58,163 nt of DNA from an uncultured virus (IMG/VR IMGVR_UViG_3300035670_000050) (IMGVR_UViG_3300035670_000050:62001-120163), one strand, 5' to 3'. Counted from the stretch's first letter, positions 7,026-43,652 are shown. Program-made: numbers and translations. Notes: generated by a model from the sequence alone, not told the origin.

Positions 7026-7358
7026 ATGGCAACAGCTTTAAATAGTTTTAAAACAATTACTGCAAATGTAACAACAAATTTAGAAACAATTTATACTTCT
7101 CCATCTGGTTATACTGGTATAGTTTTGATGGCTCAAATAAGTAATGTATCAGAAAATACATCAAATGTCACATTTGTATTAAATGATGGAGTTGCAGATT
7201 ATGAATTGTTAAAACAGTTTGATGTTCCTAAAACTGATGCTATATCTGGAACAGTTGGTAAATTAGTTTTGGAAACAGGCAGTTCAGTTAAAATTTCTGC
7301 ATCTGCAAATAATGAATTAAAAATAGTCTTAAGTATATTAGAATCAGCAAATGAATAA
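7026..7358 (+). CDS. Small beta-sandwich fibre adaptor (paralog of 10038..10400)
   Basis: 110 aa; 'IYTSP', 'ISNV', 'LVLETGSSVKISAS...IVLSILE'. Confidence 0.65.
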   Translation: MATALNSFKTITANVTTNLETIYTSPSGYTGIVLMAQISNVSENTSNVTFVLNDGVADYELLKQFDVPKTDAISGTVGKLVLETGSSVKISASANNELKIVLSILESANE

Positions 7359-10023
7359 TAGAATACACAGCGGAAAAGTAAAAAAGATACCTTCATCTAA
7401 TGTATCTTCAAGTAGATATGAATTTTTAAGTTTAGGTGAAGCTGAACCAGACTTAGGATTACCTCAAGGAAATTCTTATGTTTTAACAGCAAACACAGAT
7501 GGAACTAGAACATGGGTAAATACTGCGGATGTACAAGGTCTATCTGGGTACAGTGGAGCTCCAGGTTCATCGATTGAAATTAAAGGTTCAGTATCCGATT
7601 TTTCTAATTTACCTGAAAATGATAATACGCAAGGTGATGTTTATTATGTTGAGAGTGAAGGAAACTTATATTATTGGGATGGAACTTCTTGGGTACTTAT
7701 AGGACAAATTAAAGGATCACCAGGCGCATCTGGTTATTCTGGTTACTCAGGAATCTCTGGTCATTCTGGCATTTCTGGTTATTCTGGTAGATCAGGATGG
7801 TCTGGTTATTCTGGTGATTCAGGACTTTCAGGTTATTCAGGACTTTCAGGATTCTCTGGTGATTCAGGACTTTCAGGATTCTCTGGTGAATCTGGCTTCT
7901 CAGGTTACTCTGGTGAATCAGGTTACTCTGGAGAATCTGGTTTCTCAGGTTACTCTGGAGAATCTGGCTTCTCAGGTTATTCTGGTATTTCAGGTTATTC
8001 AGGACTTTCAGGTTACTCTGGTGAATCAGGTTACTCTGGTGAATCAGGTTTCTCAGGTATTTCAGGATTCTCTGGTGATTCAGGACTTTCAGGATTCTCT
8101 GGTGAATCTGGCTTCTCAGGTTACTCTGGTGAATCTGGGTTCTCAGGAATTTCTGGATATTCTGGTATTTCTGGATTTTCTGGTGATTCAGGTTTCTCAG
8201 GTTATTCAGGATCAGGTATTTCAGGTTATAGTGGTTTTAGTGGTGTTGCACCAGATTCAATTTTCTATGATGCTAATTCTATAACAACAGTTACAGGAAC
8301 ATATGTTTCAGGTGATGTAACAGACATTCAAACTTTTGGTGATGACAATTACTATGTTGTTTCTGAAGTCAGTGGATCTCCAGGTTATTCTATCGAGATT
8401 GATTTTACAGGTGTTGCTAATTTTAATAGAGTAGAATTAGCATTAAAATATACACACACGAATCATATAATTTATTTTGAAATCTATAATAATAACTCTT
8501 CTTCTTGGGATATAATAGGTACATTTACAGGAACAAATTTAGTTTTTGCTTCACATATATTTGATGTAATTAGTGATGTACCATATATTAATAATGGATA
8601 TGTCAACACAAGAATATATCATTATTCTGAGGGTTTTGCTAATATTAATGTAGAAATAGATTATGTTACTATTGGTCTTACAACACAAGGCCCTCAAGGT
8701 ATTTCTGGACTTTCTGGATTTAGTGGTAACTCAACTTCAGGATTCTCTGGTGAATCTGGCTTCTCAGGAATTTCTGGTTATTCTGGTGATTCAGGACTTT
8801 CAGGATTCTCTGGTGAATCTGGATTCTCAGGTTACTCTGGTATTTCAGGATTTTCTGGTGATTCAGGACTTTCAGGATATTCTGGTGAATCTGGCTTCTC
8901 AGGATATTCTGGCGAATTAGGTTTCTCAGGTTACTCTGGTGAATCAGGTTACTCTGGTGAACCAGGACTTTCAGGTTATTCTGGTTTTGGTTTATCTGGG
9001 TATTCTGGGTATTCTGGTTTACCAGGAGGTTCTTCGACATGGATTCGTAAAACTGAAAACTATGTAGCATCTTCTGGTGAAAAAATTATTGCAGATACAA
9101 GTAATAGTTCGTTTACTATAACTTTACCTTTATCACCTTCTATTGGGAATTATGTTGAGATCATGGATGGTTCTAGTTGGGCCATTAATAATTTAACAAT
9201 AGATAGAAATGGTTCTACTATTGAAAATGAAGCTGAAAATTTACTATTGGATGTATTGGGTATTTCTGTCGTTTTTGTTTATGATGGAACAACATGGCAA
9301 GTAGTTACTAGTATTGGATCTCAAGGAGTTTCAGGTTACTCAGGAATTGGTTCTTCTTGGGATCGTATAACTAGTAATTATACAGCATCACATAAACAAA
9401 GAATAATAGCTGATACAAGTAGTGGTCCGTTTACTATATCTTTGCCTTTAACTCCAAATTTAAATGATAATATAGAACTTGTTGATGGGGATAGTTGGGC
9501 AAACAATAATTTAACAATAGATAGAAATGGTTCTACTATTGAAAATGAAGCTGAAAATTTACTATTGGATGTAACTGGTATATTTTTAATATTGATATAT
9601 AATGGAAGTACTTGGAAAATAATTAGTTCAGCTGGTTCTTCTGGTGTATCCGGTTATTCTGGAGAAGGAACTGGAGGTCTTGGATCATCTGGTTACTCTG
9701 GTTATTCTGGAGAAGGGTTGTCTGGTTTTTCTGGTATATCTGGTTTTTCTGGTAGATCAGGATGGTCTGGTTATTCTGGTGCTGGAACATCAGGTTACTC
9801 TGGTTATTCTGGTGCTGGAATTTCTGGGTATTCTGGATTAGGGGTATCTGGTTACTCAGGAATCTCTGGTCATTCTGGCATTTCTGGTTATTCTGGTAGA
9901 TCAGGATGGTCTGGTTATTCTGGTACTGGAATATCTGGTTTCTCAGGTATTTCTGGTTATTCTGGTTCAGCAGCATCAGCCAGTGTTGGTAAAGCCATAA
10001 CAATGGCACTCGTTTTCGGATAA
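7351..10023 (+). CDS. Collagen-like (Gly-X-Ser) fibre protein with two gp9/gp10-like beta domains
   Basis: 890 aa; three long (G-X-S)n tracts; duplicated 'ADTS...FTI.LP..P......DG.SWA.NNLTIDRNGSTIENEAENLLLDV' domain; ends 'GKAITMALVFG'. Confidence 0.85.
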   Translation: MNNRIHSGKVKKIPSSNVSSSRYEFLSLGEAEPDLGLPQGNSYVLTANTDGTRTWVNTADVQGLSGYSGAPGSSIEIKGSVSDFSNLPENDNTQGDVYYVESEGNLYYWDGTSWVLIGQIKGSPGASGYSGYSGISGHSGISGYSGRSGWSGYSGDSGLSGYSGLSGFSGDSGLSGFSGESGFSGYSGESGYSGESGFSGYSGESGFSGYSGISGYSGLSGYSGESGYSGESGFSGISGFSGDSGLSGFSGESGFSGYSGESGFSGISGYSGISGFSGDSGFSGYSGSGISGYSGFSGVAPDSIFYDANSITTVTGTYVSGDVTDIQTFGDDNYYVVSEVSGSPGYSIEIDFTGVANFNRVELALKYTHTNHIIYFEIYNNNSSSWDIIGTFTGTNLVFASHIFDVISDVPYINNGYVNTRIYHYSEGFANINVEIDYVTIGLTTQGPQGISGLSGFSGNSTSGFSGESGFSGISGYSGDSGLSGFSGESGFSGYSGISGFSGDSGLSGYSGESGFSGYSGELGFSGYSGESGYSGEPGLSGYSGFGLSGYSGYSGLPGGSSTWIRKTENYVASSGEKIIADTSNSSFTITLPLSPSIGNYVEIMDGSSWAINNLTIDRNGSTIENEAENLLLDVLGISVVFVYDGTTWQVVTSIGSQGVSGYSGIGSSWDRITSNYTASHKQRIIADTSSGPFTISLPLTPNLNDNIELVDGDSWANNNLTIDRNGSTIENEAENLLLDVTGIFLILIYNGSTWKIISSAGSSGVSGYSGEGTGGLGSSGYSGYSGEGLSGFSGISGFSGRSGWSGYSGAGTSGYSGYSGAGISGYSGLGVSGYSGISGHSGISGYSGRSGWSGYSGTGISGFSGISGYSGSAASASVGKAITMALVFG
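7738..7815 (+). repeat. 78-bp exact direct repeat, second copy at 9847..9924
   Basis: tctggttactcaggaatctctggtcat...tcaggatggtctggttattctggt is identical at both sites. Confidence 0.85.
9187..9255 (+). repeat. 69-bp exact direct repeat, second copy at 9505..9573
   Basis: aataatttaacaatagatagaaatggttctactattgaaaatgaagctgaaaatttactattggatgta is identical in the two duplicated domains. Confidence 0.85.
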
Positions 10024-10406: not shown

Positions 10407-11588
10407 ATGGGGTTTTATACTAAAGATGGTGGTTTAATTGGAACAGGCCAAAAAAATAGTTTTACTGGTGTTGGAGATTTACATTTAAAATTTTTAAATT
10501 CATCTTCAACATTAGATGTTGGTACTGGTTTTTCATTAACAAGTGGTACAGCAATAGTTAATACAATAGTTGTACAACCTGATGGTAAATTATTAGTTGG
10601 AGGAAATTTTGATACCTATAAAGGAACCACCCAAAATAGAATAGTTAGATTATTGCCTAATGGCAGTGTAGATACTACTTTTAATCCAGGCGGTTCTGGT
10701 TTTGATTCTGTAGTATCAGATATTGTTTTGCAACCTGATGGTAAAATATTAGTTGGAGGAAATTTTAATGGTTATAATGGCGTCCAACAGATTCGTTTTT
10801 TAAGATTAAATAGTGATGGCACATTAGACACATCTTTTAATACTGGTGGAATTGGACCTACAGGACAAGTTCAAACTATTTTTTTACATTCAACTGGAAA
10901 AATATGGATTGGTGGAGATTTTCAATTTTATAATGGAGTGAGTGCTAATAGAATAGCAGGATTAAATAGTGATGGAACAAGAGATACAACTACTTTTAAT
11001 TTTGGTGGAGGTGCTAATGGTACAGTTTTTAAAATAACAAGCACATCTTCCAGTCAATTTATTGTTGTTGGTAGTTTCACACAATTTAATTCTATTACTA
11101 GAAATTATAATGTTAGATTAAATTATGATGGTAGTGCAGTTACTTCTTATACATACAATTCTAGTATTGTAAATTCTTTAACAATATCAAGCACTGAAAT
11201 ATATTTCACTGGAAATTTTATTGCTGGAAATGCTAGAGGTCTTAGCCGAAGAATAGGTGCTACTCTTGTCGAAGATACAACTTTTAATAGTAATATTGGT
11301 ACAGGTTCTGACGGGGGAACTGTATCTGGTGTGCATATACAACCTGATAATAAAATATTAGTTTATGGTTATTTTGGTGCTTTTAATGGTATTACTCACG
11401 GAAGATTATTTAGATTGAACTCTGATGGTACTTTAGATACGAACTTTAATATAGGAACTGGTTTTAATAACGCTGTTGCTACATTAGTTTTAAAACCAGG
11501 AACAACCAAAACATTTTATGTTGGCGGACAGTTTACAAGTTTTAATGGCACTAGTTATAACAGATTAGCAGAATTGACATTCCTATGA
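10407..11588 (+). CDS. Delta-60 repeat (DUF5122-like) beta-propeller, putative adhesin
   Basis: Repeats 'vQPDGKILVGG.F..YNG.......RLNSDGTLDT.FN.G.G'. Confidence 0.85.
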   Translation: MGFYTKDGGLIGTGQKNSFTGVGDLHLKFLNSSSTLDVGTGFSLTSGTAIVNTIVVQPDGKLLVGGNFDTYKGTTQNRIVRLLPNGSVDTTFNPGGSGFDSVVSDIVLQPDGKILVGGNFNGYNGVQQIRFLRLNSDGTLDTSFNTGGIGPTGQVQTIFLHSTGKIWIGGDFQFYNGVSANRIAGLNSDGTRDTTTFNFGGGANGTVFKITSTSSSQFIVVGSFTQFNSITRNYNVRLNYDGSAVTSYTYNSSIVNSLTISSTEIYFTGNFIAGNARGLSRRIGATLVEDTTFNSNIGTGSDGGTVSGVHIQPDNKILVYGYFGAFNGITHGRLFRLNSDGTLDTNFNIGTGFNNAVATLVLKPGTTKTFYVGGQFTSFNGTSYNRLAELTFL

Positions 11589-13327
11589 GAAGAAATACTG
11601 GTTTAATTGGTGTAAAAAGAGAAACTTCTTTAGCAGAAGCACCAGGTGTTTACGATAGGTTTGATGCTTACAATGCAAAAAAATCTAATCTTTGGCCACA
11701 AACAATTAAATATTTGTCATTATCACTTAACAGCGGAACAATTTTAGAATATACATCACAAGTAATAACTTTAACAACTGAAGGTATTTTAACAAACACA
11801 ACATTATATTATACAATATTACATTCAAATTCAAGTTCAGCTGATTTTGCAAGTGGTGTTACTTCTGGAAGTTTTACTGTGTTTAGTGCTACACAAACTG
11901 GTTCTTTTTACGTAGCTACAAAATTTATAGGAAATACATCAAAAACAACTAAAACATTTCAAATTGAAATTAGAACAGGTAGCACTAGTGGTCCAGTTGT
12001 ATACACTTCTGGAACCTACAACATCCCTGCTTGTACTAGTTCTGTAACTTTAACATCTTCTACAATAAATGAAAATTCTTCATCAAGCACTCTACAGATT
12101 ACGATTGGAAATGTAGGTTCATTATCTTCTATTTTTACCGATGCAGCTGCTAGCCTTTCATATACTGGTTCTACAGCAAATGCTTCGGATTTTACATCTT
12201 TACCTAGTTTGATTGATATAGGTCCTGGAACTACAAATGTTACTTATACAACAATTGCAGATGTTACTACTGAAGGTACAGAAACTTTAAATGTTCAAGT
12301 CAGTTATAATGGTTTCAATTTAGGTAGTGCTTCTTTAACTATTACGGATAGTTCTACTCCAATTACAGCTACTGTTACTCCAACTACAAGTTCAGTTAAT
12401 GAAGGTAGTTCTGTCACATTTAATATAAGCATTACTAGTGGTAATTTTTCTAGTGGAACATTATATTGGGAAATGATTACTTCTGGTTCTGTTACTGCTG
12501 CTGATTTTAGTTCACCTGCTAATGCTACTAGTGGAGGTAGTGTTGCTATATCCGGTAGTGCTGGCTCAGTAACATTTACATTAAATTCAGATTTAACTAC
12601 TGAAAGTGCAGCAGAATCTTTTCAATTTCGTTTAAGAGCTAACAGCATTAGTGGAACCATAATAGCAACTTCAAGTTCAGTAACTATCAATGATACATCA
12701 CAAACTCCAGCTGGGTCATCATACACAAGAGTATCTGGAACAAAAGCGCCAACATTAGGTGCTGGTGGAGCTTCATATCCTGGATCAGGTTGGACAGGAT
12801 TACAAAACTCTTCTTCTGATGATGCGAATATATCCGTAACTATACCAACATTCACTATCAATTCTACTAATTATACAACTGTTTTTGTTGGTTCAAATAC
12901 ATATTTAACTTTTGGTTCTGGTTCAACTGCATACAGCAGTTTAAGTGCAACTAATCCACCTTTTAATAAAATACATATTGGAGCTGCTGACAATTCATAT
13001 CAAAGGGTATCAACTATTTCTTCTGGAACAAATTATACCCGTATAAGATACGAAGGAAATGCAAGTACTAGTGGTACAGTAGGTTCGCCAGGAATTGTAT
13101 ATGAAGCTACATTTTTTAATAAAACTTCAACTGGAAATGTTCCTGTTGTAGAAATTTTAGTTGGAAATCATAATCGAACAACTGGCCAAAGAATGATAGC
13201 CTCAACAAATACAGCTTACGCATCATTTACTTTGACTGCAAACCAAAGTTATGTATTTGTTGGCAATTCAACTGGAACATCATGGACGATATATGCTGGT
13301 AGTTATATGTCAGGCACTGGTTATTAA
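11585..13327 (+). CDS. Ser/Thr-rich virion protein with Ig/Calx-beta-like repeats
   Basis: 'SVNEGSSVTF', 'ADF', 'D.TTEG.E.....V' and 'TI.DTS' motifs; ATGA coupling to the upstream gene. Confidence 0.7.
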   Translation: MRRNTGLIGVKRETSLAEAPGVYDRFDAYNAKKSNLWPQTIKYLSLSLNSGTILEYTSQVITLTTEGILTNTTLYYTILHSNSSSADFASGVTSGSFTVFSATQTGSFYVATKFIGNTSKTTKTFQIEIRTGSTSGPVVYTSGTYNIPACTSSVTLTSSTINENSSSSTLQITIGNVGSLSSIFTDAAASLSYTGSTANASDFTSLPSLIDIGPGTTNVTYTTIADVTTEGTETLNVQVSYNGFNLGSASLTITDSSTPITATVTPTTSSVNEGSSVTFNISITSGNFSSGTLYWEMITSGSVTAADFSSPANATSGGSVAISGSAGSVTFTLNSDLTTESAAESFQFRLRANSISGTIIATSSSVTINDTSQTPAGSSYTRVSGTKAPTLGAGGASYPGSGWTGLQNSSSDDANISVTIPTFTINSTNYTTVFVGSNTYLTFGSGSTAYSSLSATNPPFNKIHIGAADNSYQRVSTISSGTNYTRIRYEGNASTSGTVGSPGIVYEATFFNKTSTGNVPVVEILVGNHNRTTGQRMIASTNTAYASFTLTANQSYVFVGNSTGTSWTIYAGSYMSGTGY

Positions 13328-13341
13328 AGGAGTTTTAAAAA

Positions 13342-13785
13342 ATGAGTTTATATAGTTATAAAGGTGGTTATCCAAGTTCTTTACCAGACAGGATTAGATT
13401 GTCTAATGGTTTGACTCGTACAGAAAAAAACACTTTCACAGAAGAAGAAATTGCTAATGCTGGTTATGTTTTAGCTGAAGACCCACCAATTCATAATGAA
13501 AGACAAAGACTTGTATGGTCAGGTACAACTTGGCAAATTGTAGATTTCTCAGAAGAAGAGATAGCAGAAATAGTTGAAAGAGAATGGCAAACGATAAGAT
13601 TCAAAAGAGACGAAAAGATAAAAGAAGTTGAATGGAGATTATTTAGATATCAGTCTCAAATTAGATTGGGAATACCAACAGATGACAGTCCAGAAGAGAT
13701 AAATAAGATAGATGTCTATATACAAAACTTACGAGATGTGACAAATCAAAATGATCCATCTAACATAGTATGGCCGACTTTATAA
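13342..13785 (+). CDS. Tail fibre assembly chaperone-like protein
   Basis: AAGGAG RBS; C-terminal 'W..IR..RD......W...Y.Q.LRD...Q.DP..I.WP'. Confidence 0.75.
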   Translation: MSLYSYKGGYPSSLPDRIRLSNGLTRTEKNTFTEEEIANAGYVLAEDPPIHNERQRLVWSGTTWQIVDFSEEEIAEIVEREWQTIRFKRDEKIKEVEWRLFRYQSQIRLGIPTDDSPEEINKIDVYIQNLRDVTNQNDPSNIVWPTL

Positions 13786-13829: not shown

Positions 13830-16136
13830 ATGATCAGATTAAGTAATTTTTTAGGCAGCACTTATGTTGGAGTATCAGGTTATTCTGGGTACTCTGGCGT
13901 TTCGGCAGAAGGTGGCCAAGCTGACCTTTCTCAAATAATGGAAGATGTTGTTCCAGCAATTGATGGTGTATATGACATAGGTCTATCAACTAACTCTTGG
14001 TACAACATATATTTGAAAAATGGAATTTACTTTGAAGAGATAAATCTTTTGGCAGATCAATCAGTTTCTACAGAAATTCAAGATGTAGAAACTGATGTAC
14101 AAGTATTAATTGCAGCATGGTCAGTTGGTGGTGATTTAATTACAGGTAGAATGTTTCATGCTGGTGCTGGTACTCAAGATGCAGCATTAGCTTTTGGTGG
14201 TCAATCTAGTGATTATCTATCCTCAACAGAAGAATACAATGGTACATCATGGTCAGCTGGTGGTAATTTAATTCAAGCTAAAGATGATTTAGCTAGTGCT
14301 GGTACTCAAGATGCAGGATTAGCTATTGGTGGCCAAACTGATGGTGGTTTTCAATTCTCAACAGAAGAATATGATGGTACATCATGGTCAGCTGGTGGTA
14401 ATTTAATTACAGCTAGAGGCTGGAATGCTGGTGCTGGTACTCAAGATGCAGGATTAACTTTTGGTGGGAATAACACTTATCTATCCTCAACAGAAGAATA
14501 CAATGGTACATCATGGTCATCTGGTGGTAATTTAATTACAGCTAGATCAAATCATGCTGGTGCTGGTACTCAAGATGCAGGATTAGCTTTTGGTGGGTAT
14601 AGTGTTGACAATTATCTATCTTCAACAGAAGAATACGATGGTACATCATGGTCAGCTGGTGGTAGTTTAAGTACAGCTAGATCAAGTCATGCTGGTGCTG
14701 GTACTCAAAATGCAGGATTAGCTTTTGGTGGTATTGCTAATTATACATATTTTTCCTCAACAGAAGAATACGATGGTACATCATGGTCATATGGTGGTTA
14801 TTTAATTGCAGGTAGAGCCTGGCATGCTGGTGCTGGTACTCAAGATGCAGCATTAGCTTTTGGTGGTGATAGATATAACACTAGTTATGTATCCTCAACA
14901 GAAGAATATAATAAAAGTCTAACAACTATAAAAGAGTTGGTACCTACTGAAATAGAAGTTGTTACTCCTTTATTAAACATTAACTCTGACATATCTGTTA
15001 AAGATATTTTTGGTGAAAACATTTTTGGTACTTCATTGGTATTGACCGATATTGTTATTGTAGACAATGTTATCACACCAATAAACACTCAGTTATATGC
15101 CACTCCAGAAATTATTGTTGACGGAGGAATAACAGTTTCTTCGACTAATCCAACATATTTAAAATTTAATCAAATAGTTCCATCTGAAACAACTGAACCA
15201 TTTGAAATGAATCTTAATACATCTGTAGTTGAAGCTAATGGAACTGCAACTACAAATGATGAATGTATTAATATAGTTTTAAATATGGACACTCTGTATC
15301 CTCAAATTGGTGTTACAGATAGAACTTCAAGAATGTGGATATATGCACCAACTGGCACTTTCACAACAACCAAATCATTTGACGATTTAGTGCCTGGTGA
15401 GCTGTATGATATTACTATCCCTACTGTCTATTATTCTAGTCAATATCCAAGTTTTTTACAGAATAGAAGTTCTCCAACAACAATACAATTAGAATTTGTA
15501 GAAAAAATTGATAATTATCTAGGTTTCTTTGATGCTTTAGAATTTAGAATTCCACCAGAACTTACAGAACTATACAATACTCCATCAGATGCAGCATTAA
15601 CTGTTGTGACGAATCAACCAGCAACTAATTATATCATAACAATTTATCAAAGTGAGTCAACAACATTTGATTATTCTATTTTAGACACATACGGTTCAGA
15701 AGGAATGTTCAGATATAATCCACAAACAAAAGGATTTGAAGGACATAATGGTACAGAATGGGGACCAATTGGAGGTAGTGTAGACCTTGATTGGGCCAAT
15801 ATGACCAATAAACCTGATCCAGTCATAACAGTTACACTTACTGGAGATGTTACAGGTACAGCTAATACGACATTAACAGATTTAGCATCTGGTACAATTT
15901 CTGTTGCAACATCAGTTACATTATCATATTCAAGACAAAAATTTACTGGTAATGGTACTACAACTTCTTTTTCATTATGGGAATCTGGAAGAAATGTTGA
16001 TAATATTTTAGTATTTGTGAATGGTCTTTGTTTTGAACCAACTGAAGATTATACTGTAAGCGGTACTAGTTTAGTGTTTGTAGAAGCTCCAAGCGCTCAA
16101 GCTGAAATTGTCGTAAGATATCTTCCTATTTTATAG
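13830..16136 (+). CDS. Multidomain virion protein containing six-bladed Kelch-like propeller 1
   Basis: Six 'WS.GGNLI..R..HAGAGTQ.A.LAFGG...SSTEEY.GTS' repeats; C-terminal 'FTGNG.TT.F....LVFVNG....P..DYTVSGT.L.F..AP' fibre-anchor domain. Confidence 0.85.
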   Translation: MIRLSNFLGSTYVGVSGYSGYSGVSAEGGQADLSQIMEDVVPAIDGVYDIGLSTNSWYNIYLKNGIYFEEINLLADQSVSTEIQDVETDVQVLIAAWSVGGDLITGRMFHAGAGTQDAALAFGGQSSDYLSSTEEYNGTSWSAGGNLIQAKDDLASAGTQDAGLAIGGQTDGGFQFSTEEYDGTSWSAGGNLITARGWNAGAGTQDAGLTFGGNNTYLSSTEEYNGTSWSSGGNLITARSNHAGAGTQDAGLAFGGYSVDNYLSSTEEYDGTSWSAGGSLSTARSSHAGAGTQNAGLAFGGIANYTYFSSTEEYDGTSWSYGGYLIAGRAWHAGAGTQDAALAFGGDRYNTSYVSSTEEYNKSLTTIKELVPTEIEVVTPLLNINSDISVKDIFGENIFGTSLVLTDIVIVDNVITPINTQLYATPEIIVDGGITVSSTNPTYLKFNQIVPSETTEPFEMNLNTSVVEANGTATTNDECINIVLNMDTLYPQIGVTDRTSRMWIYAPTGTFTTTKSFDDLVPGELYDITIPTVYYSSQYPSFLQNRSSPTTIQLEFVEKIDNYLGFFDALEFRIPPELTELYNTPSDAALTVVTNQPATNYIITIYQSESTTFDYSILDTYGSEGMFRYNPQTKGFEGHNGTEWGPIGGSVDLDWANMTNKPDPVITVTLTGDVTGTANTTLTDLASGTISVATSVTLSYSRQKFTGNGTTTSFSLWESGRNVDNILVFVNGLCFEPTEDYTVSGTSLVFVEAPSAQAEIVVRYLPIL

Positions 16137-16147
16137 TAAATAAAAAA

Positions 16148-17161
16148 ATGTCTAAAGCTAGAAAATTTGCAAACAGTATTTATGGTAATGGTCCTGTTGG
16201 TATTCCTTTAGTTAAAAGGTCTACTGATTATGAACCAAATTCAAGCAACAATGCTTTAATATGGTATAACACAACTGAAAACAAATTAAAGTTTATAGAA
16301 CTCTATTTCGATGGATATCATATTCGTACAATAGTTCCACAAACTAAAATTTGGACTTATATATCCAATATGATCAGTAGTAGGAATACTCATCGTGGTT
16401 CTGGCACTCAAAATGCAGCACTAGCTTTTAGTGGTCGGATTGTTTGGGACTATACAAACACAACAGAAGAATATAATGGTATAACATGGTCAGCTGAGGG
16501 TAACATAATTACATCTAGAATATATTTCGCTGGAACTGGTGGTCCAAACGCAGCATTAGCTATTGGTGGTTGGGATGTTAATAGTAATACATTAAACTCA
16601 ACAGAAGAATACAATGGTACATCATGGTCAGCTGGTGGTAATTTAATTACAAATAGGTTTAGGAATGATGCTACTGGCACTCAAGATGCAGCATTAACTT
16701 TTGGTAATGCTGGAGTAACCTCAACAACAGAAGAATATAATGGCACATCATGGTCAGCTGGTGGTAATTTAGTTACAGGTAGAAATGTACCTTCTGCTGC
16801 TGGTAGTCAAGATGCAGCATTAGCTATTGGTGGTACTTTTAGTAATGCACCTTATCTTACATACTCAACAGAAGAATACAATGGTACATCATGGTCAACT
16901 AGCACTAATACCAATCGAGCTCGAGTAGAAGCAAATGCGTGTTCTTTAAATATAGATCAAACTATTATTTATGGAAGTATTACATATGTTGAAGTTACTT
17001 GGGGGTCAAATATTGTAGAAGAATATGATGGCATATCATGGACAAATACTAGTACATTATTATTTCGAGAAACTAACAATTATGATAGAACTGGAGCATC
17101 TCATGGATCAAAAACAGCTGCTTTACATTCAGAAACAACTAGAAGTATGGTTTATAATTAA
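16148..17161 (+). CDS. Kelch-like propeller protein 2 (last two blades degenerate)
   Basis: Six blade repeats; N-terminus MSKARKFA. Confidence 0.85.
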   Translation: MSKARKFANSIYGNGPVGIPLVKRSTDYEPNSSNNALIWYNTTENKLKFIELYFDGYHIRTIVPQTKIWTYISNMISSRNTHRGSGTQNAALAFSGRIVWDYTNTTEEYNGITWSAEGNIITSRIYFAGTGGPNAALAIGGWDVNSNTLNSTEEYNGTSWSAGGNLITNRFRNDATGTQDAALTFGNAGVTSTTEEYNGTSWSAGGNLVTGRNVPSAAGSQDAALAIGGTFSNAPYLTYSTEEYNGTSWSTSTNTNRARVEANACSLNIDQTIIYGSITYVEVTWGSNIVEEYDGISWTNTSTLLFRETNNYDRTGASHGSKTAALHSETTRSMVYN

Positions 17162-17175
17162 ATAAAGGAAAATAT

Positions 17176-17484
17176 ATGAAATATATTCAAGCAATAAATA
17201 CTGGTAAAGGTTTTATCACTCATCAAGACAGAGAACTTGGTCATTTTAGTGGGCATGCTGGAAATATTTACGCTGTTGCTGATAATGTTGCATTAGAATG
17301 GAAAAATAGAGTTAATGGCGTTGAAAAAACTTTAGAAGAAGCTCAAAATATATGTTTAGAGTCTATGCAAACCAATTGGGATGAACAGTTTAATTTAGTT
17401 ATAGAGAACGAAACAGATGAGATGAAAAATAGAAGAATACAAATGTTAGGTGAAAGACCAACATCTGTCGATTTGCCTGTTTGA
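17176..17484 (+). CDS. Hypothetical protein embedded in the Kelch cluster
   Basis: AAGGA RBS; 102 aa; no family recognised. Confidence 0.7.
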   Translation: MKYIQAINTGKGFITHQDRELGHFSGHAGNIYAVADNVALEWKNRVNGVEKTLEEAQNICLESMQTNWDEQFNLVIENETDEMKNRRIQMLGERPTSVDLPV

Positions 17485-17495
17485 AATAATAAAAT

Positions 17496-18527
17496 ATGGG
17501 AACAATTACCAGAAAATTTGCAAGCAAAATTCGTGGAGAAAGTTCATCTTTTATTCTTAGAAATGTATTTTTTTATGATTTAAATGACAGAAAATTTGGT
17601 CAGGTGTTAACCTATAATATTGGTGATAACCTAAGATATGTATCTGGAAAAAGATTACCTGGAACATGGTCAACTGGTGGTAATTTAATTCGATCCAGAA
17701 TTTCTGCTGCTGGTGCTGGTAATCAAGATGGAGGATTAGGATTAGCTTTTGGTGGGCTTGATTTTTTTGCTAGAAACTCATCAGAAACATATAATGGCAC
17801 AATATGGATATCCCGTGGTAATCTAATTACAGCTAGATATGATCATGCTGGTGCTGGTACTCACGATACAGCATTACTTTTTGGTGGGACATCTACTGTT
17901 GATTTTACCATTACATCCTCAACAGAAGAATATAATGGGTTTTCATGGTCAACTGGAGGTAATTTAATTACAGCTAGATATGATCATGCTGGTGCTGGTA
18001 CTCAAGATGCAGCATTAGCTATTGGTGGGATATCTGGTGTTACTTTTACCGTTACATCCTCAACAGAAGAATATAATGGTACATCATGGTCAACTGGTGG
18101 TAATTTAATTCAAGCTAGATATAGTCATGCTGGTGCTGGCACTCAAGATGCAGGATTAGCTATTGGTGGGATTCCTTCTAATGTTGTTGGTAATTCAACA
18201 GAAGAATACAATGGTACATCATGGTCAGCTGGAGGTAATTTAATTACAACTAGATATAGTCATGCTGGTGCTGGTACTCAATATGCAGGATTAGTTTTTG
18301 GTGGGTATTATTTTAGTGATCTATCCTCAACAGAAGAATATAATGGTACATCATGGTCAACTGGTGGTAATTTAATTCAAGCTAGATATGAACATGCTGG
18401 TGCTGGTACTCAATATGCAGCATTAGCTTTTGGTGGGTATATTAGTGGTTCATCATCTAATTCAACAGAAGAATACTCAATTACTGCTAATACTGATCTA
18501 TTCGAACAAATTTTTTTATCAGAGTGA
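17496..18527 (+). CDS. Kelch-like propeller protein 3
   Basis: Six blade repeats; N-terminus MGTITRKFA. Confidence 0.85.
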   Translation: MGTITRKFASKIRGESSSFILRNVFFYDLNDRKFGQVLTYNIGDNLRYVSGKRLPGTWSTGGNLIRSRISAAGAGNQDGGLGLAFGGLDFFARNSSETYNGTIWISRGNLITARYDHAGAGTHDTALLFGGTSTVDFTITSSTEEYNGFSWSTGGNLITARYDHAGAGTQDAALAIGGISGVTFTVTSSTEEYNGTSWSTGGNLIQARYSHAGAGTQDAGLAIGGIPSNVVGNSTEEYNGTSWSAGGNLITTRYSHAGAGTQYAGLVFGGYYFSDLSSTEEYNGTSWSTGGNLIQARYEHAGAGTQYAALAFGGYISGSSSNSTEEYSITANTDLFEQIFLSE

Positions 18528-18530
18528 AAA

Positions 18531-19565
18531 ATGGGCGTTATAACACGATTATTGGCAAAAGAAATTTCAAATACTAATTTAGAAAATTCTAGTTTGGTAA
18601 ATAGTTATATTGGCGATATGCCTAATCCAACTGTATCTGATATTGGCGATATTTTTTATAATATGTCTACAGGTAAAATAAAGGCGGTAGGTTTAATTTT
18701 AAATTATGCTATAACTCAAACATGGTCAACTAGTGGTAATTTAATTCAAGCTAGATTAGAACATGCTGGTGCTGGTACTCAATATGCAGCATTAGCTTTT
18801 GGTGGTTTTGCTAATTATAATAGTGGTTTTACTCGTTTATCCTCAACAGAAGAATACAATGGTACATCATGGTCAGCTGGTGGTAGTTTAATTACAGGTA
18901 GATATAAACATTCTGGTGCTGGTACTCAAGATGCAGGATTAGCTTTTGGTGGTTTTGATATAAATAATGCTTATCTATCCTCAACAGAAGAATATAATGG
19001 TACATCATGGTCAGCTGGTGGTAATTTAATTACAGGTAGATATGAACATGCTGGTGCTGGTACTCAAGATGCAGGATTAGCTTTTAGTGGTTTTAACTCC
19101 AGTGGTCTGTTATCAACCTCAACAGAAGAATACAATGGTACATCATGGTCAGCTGGAGGTAATTTAATTACAGGTAGGTATTCTTTTGCTGGTACTGGTA
19201 CTCAAGATGCAGCATTAGCTTTTGGTGGTTGGGCTAGTGGTCTTACACTCTCAACAGAAGAATACAATGGTACATCATGGTCAGCTGGTGGTAATTTAAG
19301 TACAGGTAGAGATTCTCTAGTTGGTGCTGGTACCGCAGACGCAGGATTAGCTTTTGGTGGTTATAATTGGGGTCGTCTTTCATTAACAGAAGAATACGAT
19401 GGTACATCATGGTCAGCTGGTGGTAATTTAATTCAAGCTAGAGTAGAACATGCTGGTGCTGGCATTCAAAATGCAGCATTAACTTTTGGTGGGGATAGTT
19501 TTGGTTATCCATCATCTTCAACAGAAGAATACAATCAAATTGTACCTGCAATAAATACAATATAA
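18531..19565 (+). CDS. Kelch-like propeller protein 4
   Basis: Six blade repeats; N-terminus MGVITRLLA. Confidence 0.85.
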   Translation: MGVITRLLAKEISNTNLENSSLVNSYIGDMPNPTVSDIGDIFYNMSTGKIKAVGLILNYAITQTWSTSGNLIQARLEHAGAGTQYAALAFGGFANYNSGFTRLSSTEEYNGTSWSAGGSLITGRYKHSGAGTQDAGLAFGGFDINNAYLSSTEEYNGTSWSAGGNLITGRYEHAGAGTQDAGLAFSGFNSSGLLSTSTEEYNGTSWSAGGNLITGRYSFAGTGTQDAALAFGGWASGLTLSTEEYNGTSWSAGGNLSTGRDSLVGAGTADAGLAFGGYNWGRLSLTEEYDGTSWSAGGNLIQARVEHAGAGIQNAALTFGGDSFGYPSSSTEEYNQIVPAINTI

Positions 19566-19591: not shown

Positions 19592-20311
19592 ATGGAAAAC
19601 AACAATGAATTGCGTAATATAATACCAACTTTTGCCAATCAAAAAGAATTTTTAATTAATATTCTTGATGAAGACGATTTCTCTAAATTGGTAAAACTCA
19701 AAGACGAACTAAAAGATACATGGTCCAAAAAACAAATTTTTAGAACTGAAACGGAAATGAGAGTGTCGGTTTTAAATGATGCTAAATTTCCAACTAATGC
19801 ATCAAAATATTGGCAATGTGTCCGTGAGCAAAATGCTTTTTTTGAAACTACAATGCAACTTTCTTTTGAATATCGTAAAAACGAAATAGAGATTAAAAAA
19901 CTTCAAAGAAATTTAGAAAAAGAAGAAGATGAATTAGAGAAAGAACTTATTCAAATTGAAATTGAACAAAAACTTTATGGTAGAGCCAACATGCAATTAG
20001 TTGCTAAAGATAGAATTCGTGAACTTGATCTTTGGTCTAAAATAAAAGCTGAACTTGATGATGGTTCTTTTGACACACAAAATGTAAATACACATCAAGA
20101 AGAATCTTTATTGTTGACTCTACAAAATAGAGCAAATATGATCTCACCAAATGCAGCTCCAGCTGAAGTCATGAATATTTTAGGACCATTAAAAACTGCT
20201 CAAAGAATTTCTACAGAAAAAACTCAAGAAAATTTAAAGTTGTCAACAGTAACAAATAATTTAAATACTTTTACTTTGAAAGATTTAAATAAAGAGTATA
20301 TTCAAAAATGA
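19592..20311 (+). CDS. Helical/coiled-coil hypothetical protein
   Basis: 239 aa; 'FRTETEMRVSVLND.KFPT.ASKYWQCVREQ' followed by coiled coil; AATAAATA at 19550. Confidence 0.7.
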   Translation: MENNNELRNIIPTFANQKEFLINILDEDDFSKLVKLKDELKDTWSKKQIFRTETEMRVSVLNDAKFPTNASKYWQCVREQNAFFETTMQLSFEYRKNEIEIKKLQRNLEKEEDELEKELIQIEIEQKLYGRANMQLVAKDRIRELDLWSKIKAELDDGSFDTQNVNTHQEESLLLTLQNRANMISPNAAPAEVMNILGPLKTAQRISTEKTQENLKLSTVTNNLNTFTLKDLNKEYIQK

Positions 20312-21861
20312 TACCTAATATATTATGGCAAACTTGGAAAACTGAAGATATTCCAAAGTCTTTAAAGAATCAATACAATTCTTGGAAGTATAGTAATCCA
20401 CATTTAAAAAGAAAAATTAGTAGTGATGAAATGTGTTCTGCTTTTATATTACAGAATTTTGGAGAAGAAGTGCATAGGTTGTATGAATCATTGCCACAAC
20501 CAATTATGCGAGCAGATTTTTGGCGTTTAGCAGTAATTTATATTTATGGAGGTTACTATTCAGATTTGGATGTTACTTGTAAGAAAAATTTAAATGAGTT
20601 TGTAAATGGTAAAGTAAAAGCAGTATTCATGAAAGAATTAGACAACATAGCTAATTTCTTTTTTGGAGCTGAAAGAAATCATCCAGTTTTAAAATTAGCA
20701 TTAGACTATATGATTGAAGAAGCAAAATCAATAACAGATAAAGATACACAATCATATGGTATGCATAATTTACATCGAGCAGTGCGTGAATACTATTCTG
20801 TTATAGGAAATAATTATATTGACAATGAAGATGTTCAATTTTTAAATAATGAATTACTAATAGAAAAAAATATTTTTATTCATCATGCAGCTAGTAATAT
20901 GAATCATTTAAATGATTATGATTCTTGGAGAATGTCTAATTTAATAATGCAAGAAAAAAGAAACCAATCTAACAATATATTATTTTTTACAACATTTAAT
21001 GAAAATGGTTTTTTATTGTATGGTAAAAAATGGATAGAAACATTTATACAAGTTTCAAATTTTTATACTTCTTTTAAAGCTAAAATTTATTATGAAGGAA
21101 ATGTACCACAAATAAATCATCCTAATATCACATATGTAGATTTTAATACAGAAATACCACATCATGACAGTTGGAAAAAAGAATTGAGAAAAAAATCAAA
21201 ACATGCTGATTATGTAAAAACAATGATAGAGAGATTTAGTTATAAATCTTTTGTTATTCAAGATGTATTACAAAAACATAATGACGATTATTTAATTTGG
21301 CTTGATGGAGATTGCGTATTTAAACAAGCCGATTATACAAATTTTCCAAAAAATATTTTGGGAGATAATTTTTTAGCTTGTCAAGTAGAAGAAAATTGGG
21401 ATTTAAATCATGTTGAAAGTGGTATTTTAATTTTTAATGGTAAACATAATGACATTAAAATATTCAATGAAGCTTTTATAGAAAATTATAAATTTGAAAG
21501 ACTTCTTCCTATGGGTGAACCATATGATGGATTTGTAGTTTTTAAGTCATTAAAAGAAACTGATTTAAAATATGTAAATTTAAATTCCAAGTATGGTAAA
21601 GGAGGAATACAGTCTGATCCTAACTGTACTTTTCAACACCCAGAAATTAAATCTAAATTTATACACAATATTGGTTGGACTGGTAAAAATCAATATGAAA
21701 ATTGGGATAGAATTTTCAGAATTGACGATACTTATAAAAAAATGAAATCATTTTTGTTTGGTAATCCAAGTAATTCATCTGAAGAAATGAAAAAACGCAA
21801 AACAAAAATTGAATCTCTGTTAAATAAAAAAGGTAGTTTTTTATCTTCAAAAAAATTATGA
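20308..21861 (+). CDS. Two-domain glycosyltransferase (GT32/OCH1-like plus a second GT-A domain)
   Basis: 'MIP.I.WQTW', 'RADFWRL..IY..GG.Y.DLD' (DxD); second domain 'RFSYK', 'IWLDGD', 'ESG'. Confidence 0.85.
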   Translation: MIPNILWQTWKTEDIPKSLKNQYNSWKYSNPHLKRKISSDEMCSAFILQNFGEEVHRLYESLPQPIMRADFWRLAVIYIYGGYYSDLDVTCKKNLNEFVNGKVKAVFMKELDNIANFFFGAERNHPVLKLALDYMIEEAKSITDKDTQSYGMHNLHRAVREYYSVIGNNYIDNEDVQFLNNELLIEKNIFIHHAASNMNHLNDYDSWRMSNLIMQEKRNQSNNILFFTTFNENGFLLYGKKWIETFIQVSNFYTSFKAKIYYEGNVPQINHPNITYVDFNTEIPHHDSWKKELRKKSKHADYVKTMIERFSYKSFVIQDVLQKHNDDYLIWLDGDCVFKQADYTNFPKNILGDNFLACQVEENWDLNHVESGILIFNGKHNDIKIFNEAFIENYKFERLLPMGEPYDGFVVFKSLKETDLKYVNLNSKYGKGGIQSDPNCTFQHPEIKSKFIHNIGWTGKNQYENWDRIFRIDDTYKKMKSFLFGNPSNSSEEMKKRKTKIESLLNKKGSFLSSKKL

Positions 21862-22625
21862 AAGACAATATCGTTATAGTAACTGGAGGTTTTGACCCCA
21901 TTCATTCTGGGCATATTTCTTATATACATGATGCTCAAAATTATGGAAGAGTTGTTGTGGGTGTTAATAGTGATGAGTGGTTGATAAAGAAAAAAGGCCA
22001 AGCATTCATGCCATTTGAAGAGAGAATTAATATAGTTAAAAATATAAAGGGCGTGATGTTGGCGATAGGTTTTAATGACTCTGATGGATCTGCTTGTGAT
22101 TCTATCTCTGTAGTAAAAAGTATGTTCCCAAAACAAAAAATCATATTTGCAAATGGTGGAGATAGAACAAAAACCAACATACCAGAAATGAATAATTTTA
22201 AAGACGATCCTCAAGTAGAATTTAAATTTGGTGTAGGTGGCGAAAATAAAAAGAATAGTTCTAGTTGGATATTGTCTGAATGGAAACACCCTACCGAAAA
22301 TAGAGTATGGGGTAAATTTATGACATATTATGATTCTAAAACAACAAAGATTAAAAGATTGATATTGGAACCTGGCAAATCAATTTCAATGCAATACCAT
22401 GAAAACAGAAATGAGTTTTGGTTTGTTGAAGAAGGGTTTGGTAAAATAACGACATTGATTAATGACGAAGAAGTTTTAGTAAAAAATATTCAAAAACATG
22501 ACAGTTATTTCGTTGAACTTAAAAAATGGCACAGGTTAGAAAATGTAGGTAAAGATAATTTATGTATTATTGAAATACAGTATGGAAAAGAATGTATAGA
22601 AGAAGATATTATTAGAAAGCTTTAA
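21858..22625 (+). CDS. Cytidylyltransferase-like (HxGH) domain fused to a mannose-6-phosphate isomerase type II-like cupin
   Basis: 'TGGFDPIHSGH', 'GVNSD.WL..KKG', 'FANGGDR', 'NSSS'; then 'R.WG', 'PGKSISMQYH..R.EFW', 'WHRL.N', 'EIQYG..C.EEDI.R'. Confidence 0.85.
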   Translation: MKDNIVIVTGGFDPIHSGHISYIHDAQNYGRVVVGVNSDEWLIKKKGQAFMPFEERINIVKNIKGVMLAIGFNDSDGSACDSISVVKSMFPKQKIIFANGGDRTKTNIPEMNNFKDDPQVEFKFGVGGENKKNSSSWILSEWKHPTENRVWGKFMTYYDSKTTKIKRLILEPGKSISMQYHENRNEFWFVEEGFGKITTLINDEEVLVKNIQKHDSYFVELKKWHRLENVGKDNLCIIEIQYGKECIEEDIIRKL

Positions 22626-22667: not shown

Positions 22668-23621
22668 ATGTCTACACCAACAACTAGAGCACAATTTAAA
22701 GATTATTGTCTTCGTAGATTAGGATGGCCAGTAATCGATATAAATGTTGATGATGATCAAATTGATGATCGTATAGATGATGCATTACAGTTTTTTCAAG
22801 ACTATCACTATGATGGTACAGAAAAATTGTATATGAAACATCAAATCACTCAAGCTGATATTGATCGTCGTTGGATTTACTGCCCAGATCCCGTAACTTT
22901 TGTAACTGGTGTATTAAGATTTGATGACTCAAATTCATCAATCAATATGTTTGATCTGCGTTACCAATTAAGACTTCATGATCTGTATGATTTTACATCG
23001 GTATCTTATGTGTCTTATGAAATAACAATGCAACATATCACAACACTCAATCTTCTTTTCTCTGGTACTCCACAATTTAGATTCAATCGTAAACAAAACA
23101 AATTGTTTCTTGACATAGATTGGACAAGAGATTTAGATGTTGGTGAATATGTAATTGTAGAATGTTATCGTAAGTTAATACCAGATGTTATAAACCTTAC
23201 AGGTACAGTTACATTAGATAACACATCTAAAATTGTAATTGGAACTAACACAATTTTTGATCAAGAAATTGTTGAAAACGATGTTGTGAGTTTTGGCAAT
23301 GAAAGTCTTCAAGTCCGTAAAATAAAATCTCCAACAGAAATAGAATTGGTATATGAACCAACACAATCTGGTTCAAATGTATCTATGACAGTTGCTGGAA
23401 ATACAGATGTTTGGAATGACAGATTTTTAAAACGATACGCTACTGCAAAAATTAAATATCAATGGGGAACTAATTTAAGTAAGTTTGCAGGTATACAATT
23501 ACCTGGTGGAGTTACATTAGATGGCCCTCGTATCATGCAAGAAGCACAAGAAGAACTAAGTAAGATAGAAGAAGAAATGTATCAGATGGGATCTCTTCCT
23601 TCTGAAATCTTTATTGGATAA
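22668..23621 (+). CDS. gp13: Neck protein gp13
   Basis: 'YCLRRLG.PVI.INV.DDQ..DRIDDALQ', 'QWG.NLSKF.G.QLPGGVTLDG'. Confidence 0.93.
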   Translation: MSTPTTRAQFKDYCLRRLGWPVIDINVDDDQIDDRIDDALQFFQDYHYDGTEKLYMKHQITQADIDRRWIYCPDPVTFVTGVLRFDDSNSSINMFDLRYQLRLHDLYDFTSVSYVSYEITMQHITTLNLLFSGTPQFRFNRKQNKLFLDIDWTRDLDVGEYVIVECYRKLIPDVINLTGTVTLDNTSKIVIGTNTIFDQEIVENDVVSFGNESLQVRKIKSPTEIELVYEPTQSGSNVSMTVAGNTDVWNDRFLKRYATAKIKYQWGTNLSKFAGIQLPGGVTLDGPRIMQEAQEELSKIEEEMYQMGSLPSEIFIG

Positions 23622-23624
23622 ATT

Positions 23625-43451: not shown

Positions 43452-43652
43452 ATGGATAAAGAAAAACTTGAACATCATCTGGTACACTTAGAGAAAGTAC
43501 ATCGTGAACTAGATGCCGAAATAATTAAAGAAGAAAAACATTATGGTAATGATGCACTTGTTACCTCAATGAAGAAAAAGAAGTTGCAATTAAAAACAGA
43601 AATTGAACATTTGAAGACACAATTACAACATGAAACTTTGTATACTCGGTGA
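43452..43652 (+). CDS. DUF465/YdcH-like small helical protein
   Basis: 'H..LD.EI........L...KKKKL.LK.EI'. Confidence 0.7.
   Translation: MDKEKLEHHLVHLEKVHRELDAEIIKEEKHYGNDALVTSMKKKKLQLKTEIEHLKTQLQHETLYTR

Follow-up and report, generated by a model that had tools for sequence, protein, structure and literature searches.

The 58,163-nucleotide (nt) stretch of DNA considered here, which as a whole is called the window, covers positions 62001-120163, the second half, of the linear 120,163-base virus record IMGVR_UViG_3300035670_000050, which is estimated to be 68% complete. It carries four neighbouring genes, here numbered 1 to 4, that are predicted to encode six-bladed beta-propellers of the Kelch type. 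The DNA of the blade scaffolds appears to have been homogenised both within and between these genes, with the exception of two loops in every blade. The reading that in our judgement accounts best for this pattern, with a probability of about 0.55, is that the propellers are host-binding heads borne by tail fibres, that their scaffolds evolve in concert while selection keeps the loops distinct, and that there is no programmed generator that makes new loops in every generation.

Each gene contains six tandem units of 42-49 amino acids (aa), except that the degenerate last unit of gene 2 has 40 aa, and Tandem Repeats Finder describes the arrays by a period of 126-141 nt. There are 22 clear blades and two degenerate ones, the latter being units 5 and 6 of gene 2. 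The unit reads W-S-x-G-G-N-L-I-x-x-R-[2-3 variable]-H-A-G-A-G-T-Q-D-A-x-L-A-F-G-G-[5-12 variable]-S-T-E-E-Y-N-G-T-S, and all four genes match the same function-unannotated family, PHROG 27227, with expectation values (E) from 7e-27 to 9e-50. The order of the blades depends on the original metagenome assembly; contigs assembled with k = 31 confirm pieces of it and break at the repeats. Gene 2 is the most diverged of the four, with a scaffold nt identity of 0.78-0.81 to the other genes. Its blades 1-4 keep the framework residues and its blades 5 and 6 (16892-17158) have lost most of them. The gene looks as if it were escaping homogenisation or decaying.

A Kelch repeat has about 44-56 residues, with a hydrophobic run and Gly-Gly, and then a spaced Tyr and Trp. 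The blades present hydrophobic run, Gly-Gly, Tyr, Trp and Arg in order; Trp and Tyr are found in 22 of 22 blades and the two Gly-Gly columns are kept in 20 and 21 of them. No single sequence of the four genes reaches a gathering cut-off of the Pfam Kelch families, the best scores being 18.7 bits against 50 for Kelch_KLHDC2_KLHL20_DRC7, 15 against 21.6 for Kelch_4 and 15.4 against 20.1 for Kelch_1, and genes 2 and 4 have no Pfam Kelch match at all. A profile made from 18 members of the family finds the solved Kelch domains SAKe6FR (E = 1.5e-20), KLHL17 (5.6e-15), KLHL12 (4.7e-14) and Keap1 (about 4e-9), and by sequence alone it matches 73 distinct chains at E <= 0.01.

The protein of gene 4, alone among the four, was modelled with AlphaFold2 from an alignment of 18 sequences. 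The model has a mean predicted local distance difference test score (pLDDT) of 84.8 and a predicted template-modelling score (pTM) of 0.78; apart from an N-terminus of low confidence it contains 24 propeller strands, arranged as 6 x 4 according to DSSP. When compared with the PDB by Foldseek, it has as its top matches the designed Kelch protein SAKe6, Plasmodium K13, LZTR1, Keap1 and KLHL12, with E from 1e-17 to 1e-19 and probability 1.00. That designed, symmetric Kelch proteins come out on top is due to the near-perfect internal symmetry. In the BFVD database, Foldseek returns uncharacterised phage proteins, phage 'Kelch repeat' proteins, 'virion structural proteins' of jumbo phages and poxvirus Kelch proteins.

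When the strands assigned by DSSP are mapped on the units, the variable tripeptide after the Arg falls in the D-A connection, from strand D of one blade to strand A of the next, and the long variable loop falls between strands B and C. Because the blades of the model have the topology of a four-stranded antiparallel meander, both kinds of loop have to emerge on one and the same side of the propeller; this is a topological argument, not a measurement of distances. One face of a propeller thus carries 12 variable loops, six of each kind, and in Keap1 it is the D-A and B-C loops that form the ligand pocket, according to the relevant part of PMC12314335. The loops are enriched in Ser (2.35-fold), Tyr (2.2-fold), Trp (2.0-fold), Asn (1.7-fold) and Phe (1.6-fold), and Lys, Glu, His, Cys and Met are absent. 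Such a composition is typical of binding surfaces.

One conserved turn of the blades calls for a remark of its own. The motif E-Y-N-G-T occurs in the C-D turn of most blades, and it has the form of an N-glycosylation sequon. Genes for a glycosyltransferase and a cytidylyltransferase/cupin protein (20308-22625) lie just downstream of these blades. Since Asp takes the place of Asn in four of the 22 blades, a purely structural turn is a simpler reading of the motif than glycosylation.

The case for homogenisation comes from the DNA. In 37 scaffold columns of the 22 blades, pairs with the same residue also use the same codon with a frequency of 0.89, when 0.45 is predicted from codon usage in the record's other long plus-strand open reading frames (ORFs). 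The choice of codon is specific to the column: for Ala, five columns have GCT and two have GCA, and the Thr columns have ACA, ACT, ACA and ACA in turn. From this column-specific sharing follows that the blades have a common DNA ancestry, and that codon bias is not the cause. The mean pairwise nt identities of the three scaffold blocks are 0.82, 0.87 and 0.88, and scaffolds are nearly as similar between genes (0.848) as within a gene (0.870); for genes 1 and 4, at a distance of 3-5 kb, the identity is 0.902. The longest exact runs between pairs of genes are 38-54 nt. When the scaffolds of the window are compared with those of 1111 other blades, the nearest one is inside the window in 22 cases out of 22, and the same-codon fraction drops from 0.89 within the window to 0.49 between its blades and other loci.

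The loops behave differently. For the three codons after the Arg the mean pairwise nt identity is 0.45, and for the loops it is 0.50, which is indistinguishable from the 0.47 +/- 0.06 obtained for shuffled sequences. Among 231 loop pairs only one, from the adjacent blades 2 and 3 of gene 3, is related, with an nt identity of 0.80. The entropy peaks at columns 12-13 and 29-36, in the window and in the family alike, and the loops cannot be aligned.

Silent sites give a measure of relative age. The proportion of synonymous differences (pS) in the scaffold is 0.146 and that of non-synonymous differences (pN) is 0.147. The non-repetitive N-termini of the four genes have 20-29% aa identity and a pS of 0.47-0.64. 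Because the N-termini are synonymously saturated and the scaffold pS is low, the genes are old, and the frameworks of the blades have a young look. For the codons that follow the Arg, three per blade, pS is 0.52, a value that comes from few sites; divergence also at silent positions would fit better with windows that have escaped homogenisation than with selection on amino acids alone. Among nine informative biallelic scaffold sites, a four-gamete pattern is seen in 17 of 36 site pairs. Together with the distances, which are uncorrelated between blocks when gene 2 is set aside, this is compatible with reticulate exchange, although the test is weak.

Much of this had been described in a first-pass annotation of the sequence, and the description has held up well. 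Its near-identical scaffold DNA in about 24 blades of four neighbouring genes, synonymous sites included, corresponds to the 22 clear and two degenerate blades with their high codon sharing, and the 52-nt identity it reported between positions 14222 and 16597 is real. The tripeptides it listed after the Arg (MFH, DDL, GWN, SNH, AWH, IYF, YDH, YSH, YEH, YKH, YSF and DSL), as well as its list of loops, are all present, and the two windows said to vary freely, the second of them rich in Tyr, Phe, Trp, Asn and Ser, are the D-A and B-C loops; the enrichments of these residues in the loops are 1.6- to 2.35-fold. Its six-bladed Kelch-type propellers are backed by the AlphaFold2 model, Foldseek and profile homology, its placing of both loops on one face by the strand topology, and the low scaffold dS beside loop diversity that it suggested looking for has its counterpart in a scaffold pS of 0.146 with loops at the shuffled level.

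What the propellers are for is suggested by the company they keep. The four genes are co-oriented, with intergenic gaps of 3-44 nt, behind a fibre chaperone and fibre genes, and have fibre or baseplate genes on one side and the neck genes on the other. Residues 649-696 of gene 1 have 81% identity to the repeated module of a fibre protein with PF13884 (Peptidase_S74) and PF03406 (Phage_fiber_2), and residues 24-114 and 620-767 match a protein that bears Mtd_N, so that gene 1 is a mosaic of fibre modules. In homologues, its modules also go together with, among others, collagen and the N-terminal domains of T7 tail fibre, collar and T4 gp9/10 proteins, and PF13884 is present in nine of 120 homologues of gene 4 among the matches listed. 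In two related loci, L004 and L009, one protein unites an N-terminal anchor and a collagen stalk with three propellers. Joining to fibre shaft or anchor modules is thus a property of gene 1 and homologues, and genes 2-4 carry short N-termini only. Most likely, judged from these modules and neighbours, the propellers would be distal host-binding heads on or beside the tail fibres, giving four binding surfaces per virion.

A search with PF00078 gives no reverse transcriptase in the 120,163-base record, 68% complete, although positive controls matched. Donor cassettes or other blade-like copies outside the four genes are not found in the 120 kb (blastn with word size 7; hmmsearch at E <= 1), and with no blade-like segment beyond the four genes the record also has no pair of template repeat and variable repeat. 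In two runs of one study there are contigs that agree with the window, no difference being listed, and in a third run most pieces are exact. Other contigs from the same samples place different loops between scaffolds like those of the window, in some cases at greater depth than the phage. Where a scaffold thus continues into foreign letters, the simplest explanation is another blade, or another phage with this scaffold. One 107-nt contig from another study (14159-14265) has all of its eight differences in the B-C loop of gene 1 blade 1, and it was not counted because its flanks are generic scaffold, which makes orthology undemonstrable.

Relatives of the phage allow change to be followed over different times. 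The three single-propeller ORFs of one relative are identical in seven of seven contigs from different assemblies. In a first pair of relatives diverged by 1-2%, 8 of 588 scaffold, 2 of 54 D-A and 1 of 132 B-C positions differ; in a second such pair the numbers are 11 of 585, 0 of 54 and 3 of 144. In these two close pairs, the loops change no faster than the scaffold. Between L004 and L009, the fibre protein with three propellers differs at 170 of 786 nt in propeller 1, where all loops are replaced, at 3 of 771 in propeller 2 and at 0 of 759 in propeller 3. Within the first 198 residues of this protein, the collagen-like stalk shows in-frame deletions of Gly-X-Y triplets between these otherwise near-identical relatives, and therefore the length of the shaft varies too. 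Identical B-C loops of at least six residues occur in 14 of 5934 within-locus blade pairs, spread over 9 of 36 loci, and 11 of them are identical also in DNA. In all 14 cases the D-A residues differ, which calls either for a breakpoint within the scaffold block that separates the windows or for a fast divergence of D-A. Exchange of loops and propellers in the relatives is thus rare and takes place over evolutionary time. A recent lateral transfer involving L049, the locus with the closest scaffold elsewhere (maximum nt identity per blade 0.89), was considered and rejected, since the common ground is only the propeller and a tail-sheath segment.

These results also decide how far the more ambitious part of the first-pass annotation can be kept. 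It had proposed that recombination shuffles loops and blades among the genes; this is true of relatives, where exchange is rare (the 14 pairs and one swapped propeller), and is seen in none of the 231 pairs of the window. Its independence of reverse transcriptase agrees with the 120-kb record. The idea of an antibody-like repertoire, and of a new system of diversification, finds no support: the window has no shared loops, the 120 kb have no donor copies, the contigs from two runs have no listed difference, the propeller genes of a relative are identical in seven assemblies, and at 1-2% divergence there is no excess of change in the loops.

The family to which the four genes belong is large. 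Among 8000 candidates scored with gene 4, 2861 proteins are found at E <= 1e-3, and in an exhaustive search of 1.84 billion cluster representatives the count is 8025 for an E of up to 1e-3 and falls to 4770 for up to 1e-10 and to 1530 for up to 1e-30; the largest representatives have up to 2803 aa and 14 matched stretches. A scan of IMG/VR with gene 1 gives at least 710 stretches, at least 701 of them confirmed, with at most about 60% aa identity in the propeller. Cultured phages tell another story: with gene 4 as the tblastn query, 50,697 phage records yield a single weak match with 28% identity, and megablast of the 5.7-kb region against phage records yields none. Among species-representative prokaryote genomes there are 23 loci, all in metagenome-assembled genomes (MAGs) of scattered taxa, many on short contigs, and they give no clue to a host. 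Three of these MAGs, from Methanothrix, hold propeller relatives with 40-42% identity (L065, on a 3.6-Mb chromosome, L067 and L068); they may represent a provirus, or a branch of the family in archaeal viruses.

A census with the blade profile, covering 56 fetched loci and the window, comprises 1133 blades in 138 ORFs. The number of blades is 6, 12, 18, 24 or 30 in 128 of the ORFs, the ten exceptions having 4, 5, 7, 10 or 15, so that the proteins occur as strings of one to five propellers, and in 33 of the 56 loci there is more than one propeller ORF. The entropy in the family is 2.4-3.0 bits at columns 12-13 and at most of columns 29-35 (1.7 at column 33), compared with 0-1.6 in the scaffold, and the framework consensus is specific to the lineage. 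In 36 non-redundant loci, the same-codon fraction averages 0.65 for blades of one locus and 0.48 for blades of different loci, the 0.89 of the window being the second highest value, and 319 of 605 blades have their nearest scaffold within their own locus. From these numbers follows that concerted evolution is a trait of the whole family, and that the window is an extreme case of it.

How homogenisation could go together with loop diversity may be pictured as follows. Homologous recombination, by gene conversion or unequal exchange, would take place between scaffold blocks of 45-60 nt and make the frameworks alike. The general T4-type system of UvsY, UvsW and gp46/47 would carry out the exchange, a link that we infer; these genes are in the window, as the first-pass annotation had said, and their assignment comes from matches to PHROG 231 (UvsY), 16 (UvsW), 100 (gp47) and 77 (gp46). 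Conversion tracts that stay inside a scaffold block would be harmless, and those that overwrite a loop would mostly be lost, when selection retains a different set of loops in every blade. Over long times, the same homology would occasionally carry a B-C loop, or an entire propeller, into another position or another genome.

Against fibre-borne heads with scaffolds evolving in concert, there are a number of points to be taken into account. The putative receptor-binding role is drawn from gene context and fusion partners, and the N-termini of genes 2-4 have only 57-68 residues and low model confidence. The ratio of non-synonymous to synonymous change (dN/dS) in the scaffold is about 1.0, which would also fit a recent burst of duplication. 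Without gene 2, Mantel tests between scaffold blocks are non-significant, with the low power that nine informative sites give. No loop is identical in any of the 231 blade pairs, and so no loop exchange is visible in this genome. The population data consist of k = 31 contigs, in which repeats cause breaks and rare variants are lost; the relative's seven identical assemblies may stem from one study; and the remaining third of the genome could hold a reverse transcriptase or donor cassettes.

Consider then the case where all blades have arisen by recent amplification from one blade, without conversion, so that the scaffolds are alike because they are young and the loops have been driven apart by strong diversifying selection or local hypermutation. 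The dN/dS near 1.0 with low dS, the star-like similarity of the blades, and the kinship of the loops in blades 2 and 3 of gene 3, as after a tandem duplication, are what one would expect from such a burst. With it one would have to reconcile N-termini that mark the genes as old, loops that have reached the shuffled level while the scaffold pS is 0.15, a synonymous divergence that is high also after the Arg, and two pairs of relatives in which 1-2% divergence has brought no faster change in the loops; we regard it as very unlikely. A programmed generator, in which dedicated or co-opted recombination shuffles loops and blades within the phage population in the manner of antibodies or of lamprey receptors, is scarcely credible. 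It could make use of the exact homology blocks of 38-54 nt that flank every variable window and of the T4-type recombination genes, and it could account for the rare sharing of B-C loops with different D-A residues in relatives and for the same-sample contigs with window-like scaffolds around other loops, which may as well be other phages. Against this stand 231 window pairs without a shared loop, 120 kb without donor cassettes, extra blades or a reverse transcriptase, the two runs that hold the phage and have no listed variant (in contigs only), the relative whose three propeller genes are the same in all seven assemblies, and a blade number that is a multiple of six in 128 of 138 ORFs.

The propellers may also have a role outside the virion, either as adaptors for host proteins, like the poxvirus Kelch proteins, or as carbohydrate-active or decoration proteins in a variable island. 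In line with the part of PMC7029224 that treats such islands, the one considered here also carries a non-structural glycosyltransferase and a sugar-nucleotide enzyme; a late-promoter consensus is absent directly upstream of the four genes, and poxvirus Kelch proteins are among the BFVD matches. The tight packing of the co-oriented genes behind fibre chaperone and fibre genes, the fibre modules with which gene 1 and many homologues are fused (collagen, T7 tail-fibre N-terminus, collar, Peptidase_S74 and Mtd_N) and the BFVD matches to 'virion structural protein' in jumbo phages all point to the virion, and we consider this alternative unlikely, though worth keeping in mind. A further thought, to which we give only a small chance, goes beyond fibre-borne heads with concerted scaffolds: the near-identical scaffold DNA would itself be selected, as a portable recombination adaptor among paralogues and co-occurring phages by which B-C loops, blades and entire propellers pass from one position or genome to another, and a community-wide combinatorial repertoire of binding surfaces, on which the fibre heads of uncultured T4-like phages would draw, would arise independently of reverse transcriptase and without a dedicated enzyme. 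The observed homogenisation and the rare transfers are a pattern only, by which second-order selection for evolvability would be neither shown nor contradicted.

Positions of the propeller genes, their blades and neighbouring features, counted from the first letter of the window
Feature	Position	Strand	Remarks
Collagen-like fibre gene	7351-10023		upstream part of host-recognition block
DUF5122 propeller gene, 393 aa	10407-11588	+	Pfam DUF5122 E 1.6e-60, four matched stretches
Ser/Thr/Gly-rich ORF, 580 aa, internal repeats	11585-13327	+	directly 5' of chaperone-like gene; weak Rib-domain match only
Tail-fibre assembly chaperone-like gene	13342..13785	+	PF16778 Phage_tail_APC E 1.4e-8, 34.9 bits (cut-off 26.6); PHROG tail fibre assembly families
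Gene 1, 768 aa	13830..16136	+	N-terminal module, one six-bladed propeller, C-terminal fibre-module part of about 400 aa; phrog_27227 E 1.2e-44
Gene 1, six blades	14118..14915	+	unit dissection; blade-profile hmmsearch
Gene 2, 337 aa	16148..17161	+	single propeller; phrog_27227 E 7.4e-27
Gene 2, six blades, units 5 and 6 degenerate	16352..17158	+	unit dissection; four units pass blade profile at 1e-3
Small ORF, 102 aa, between genes 2 and 3	17176..17484	+	no PHROG match; Pfam match at chance level
Gene 3, 343 aa	17496..18527	+	short N-terminal peptide and one propeller; phrog_27227 E 1.5e-47
Gene 3, six blades	17667..18482	+	unit dissection; blade profile
Gene 4, 344 aa	18531..19565	+	short N-terminal peptide and one propeller; phrog_27227 E 9.4e-50; protein folded
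Gene 4, six blades	18723..19538	+	unit dissection; blade profile
DXD glycosyltransferase gene	20308-21861		downstream of the four propeller genes
Cytidylyltransferase/cupin (sugar-nucleotide) gene	within 20308-22625		downstream of the propeller genes
Neck genes gp13/gp14	22668-24527
UvsY-like gene	40530-40964	+	PHROG
UvsW-type helicase gene	40965-42434	+	PHROG
gp47-like gene	43630-44700	+	PHROG
Homing-endonuclease-like gene	44681-45325	+	PHROG 655 E 1.6e-25
gp46-like gene	45322-47034	+	PHROG

By its gene content the virus, an uncultured marine one, is a T4-like myovirus: the record has PHROG matches to portal, sheath, tube, terminase, neck and scaffold genes, and its major capsid protein has 64% identity to that of cyanophage P-TIM40 and 63% to that of Methylophilales phage Melnitz. 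The T4 late-promoter consensus is TATAAATA. A scan for TATAAATA gives seven matches, with 7.98 expected, and none directly upstream of the four propeller genes; all seven are on the plus strand, and five of them (5569, 22637, 34440, 37207 and 39716) stand just 5' of late structural genes. The propeller genes, the first of which is adjoined on its 5' side by the chaperone-like gene, belong to a block with the order collagen-like fibre, DUF5122 propeller, 580-aa ORF, chaperone-like gene, four propeller genes, glycosyltransferase and sugar-nucleotide enzyme, and neck genes. In the part of PMC7029224 concerned with gene order, the host recognition cluster of pelagimyophages and cyanomyophages is placed between VrlC and gp14, and the block fits this cluster. 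The DUF5122 product is a second beta-propeller in the fibre block, unrelated to those of the Kelch type. From another study there is a contig, belonging to a related phage, that overlaps the 102-aa ORF between genes 2 and 3; it covers positions 17233-17490 and has two differences in 258 nt. Further downstream, the homing-endonuclease-like gene lies between the gp47-like and gp46-like genes, overlapping the end of the former by 20 nt and the start of the latter by 4 nt.

Literature searches found no description of the propeller family. A Kelch-repeat protein is mentioned in passing for cyanophage P-HM2 in the relevant part of PMC3037559, and Kelch repeats are described as enriched in long-read viral data in that of PMC9238414. 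The novelty lies in the carrier, Kelch propeller heads that make up a very large family in phages; the fold, the mode of evolution and the idea of recombination in conserved motifs are already known. If the proteins are host-binding heads, they constitute a major unrecognised class of receptor-binding modules in aquatic T4-like phages, and they may serve as markers for the evolution of host range in phages whose hosts are hard to grow. The family, large in metagenomes and nearly absent from cultured phage genomes, is also a clear case, among phages, of concerted evolution going hand in hand with diverse loops. Finally, a naturally symmetric Kelch scaffold with 12 free loops per propeller comes near the constructs of protein designers, as reflected by SAKe6 among the top structural matches.

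Diversity-generating retroelements, as in the case of Mtd in a Bordetella phage, diversify the surface of a receptor-binding protein on a constant scaffold; they need a reverse transcriptase and a template repeat, and they vary within populations. Here, in contrast, neither component is found in the 120-kb record and the contigs reveal no variation in the population. In the lamprey variable lymphocyte receptors and in bacterial pilins, banks of silent donor cassettes are copied by gene conversion into one expressed locus. Common to these systems and the phage propellers is a build of repeat modules whose framework is constant and whose surface residues vary, but in the window all copies reside in four intact genes that look expressed, and there are no silent copies in the 120 kb.

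Closer in setting are the gp38 adhesins of T-even phages, in which hypervariable segments stand between conserved glycine-rich motifs and recombination in or near these motifs makes chimeric adhesins (Trojet et al. 2011, PMC3157838). As the propellers would be, gp38 is a host-recognition protein of the T4 superfamily where conserved motifs frame hypervariable loops. Unlike them, it has an unrelated fold and is one small protein with four segments in place of 24 repeated blades, for which the part of that report used here documents neither an intragenomic repeat family nor concerted evolution.

The fold itself has its nearest likeness in the Kelch propellers of Keap1, KLHL12, KLHL17, KLHL20 and SAKe6, with which the phage proteins share homology at the profile level and the hallmark residues. 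With Keap1 the likeness extends to the loops, in so far as the D-A and B-C loops by which it binds its ligand, as given in the section of PMC12314335 on the pocket, are the windows that vary here. The phage family differs from these proteins by scores below the Pfam cut-offs, by the lack of a BTB/BACK partner, by its fibre setting, by its strings of one to five propellers and by blades that are homogenised in their DNA.

The closest known evolutionary mode is that of the HNWD/NWD genes of Podospora anserina (het-d, het-e and het-r), whose WD40 repeats are under concerted evolution (Paoletti et al. 2007, PMC1805685). As far as that report is drawn on here, both cases have propeller repeats of a multigene family that are exchanged within and between loci, with a near-identical framework and hypervariable positions on the interaction face. 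The fungal repeats are of the WD40 type, in a eukaryotic NOD-like receptor (NLR), with a variable number of repeats, four variable point positions, and hypermutation by repeat-induced point mutation (RIP). The phage repeats are of the Kelch type; the likeness of scaffolds within a genome is found in them as well, while the variable repeat number is not, the count being a multiple of six in nearly all ORFs (128 of 138). With six blades fixed per propeller, whole loops of variable length in the place of point positions, and no counterpart of RIP, the phage family combines this mode of evolution with another fold and another carrier.

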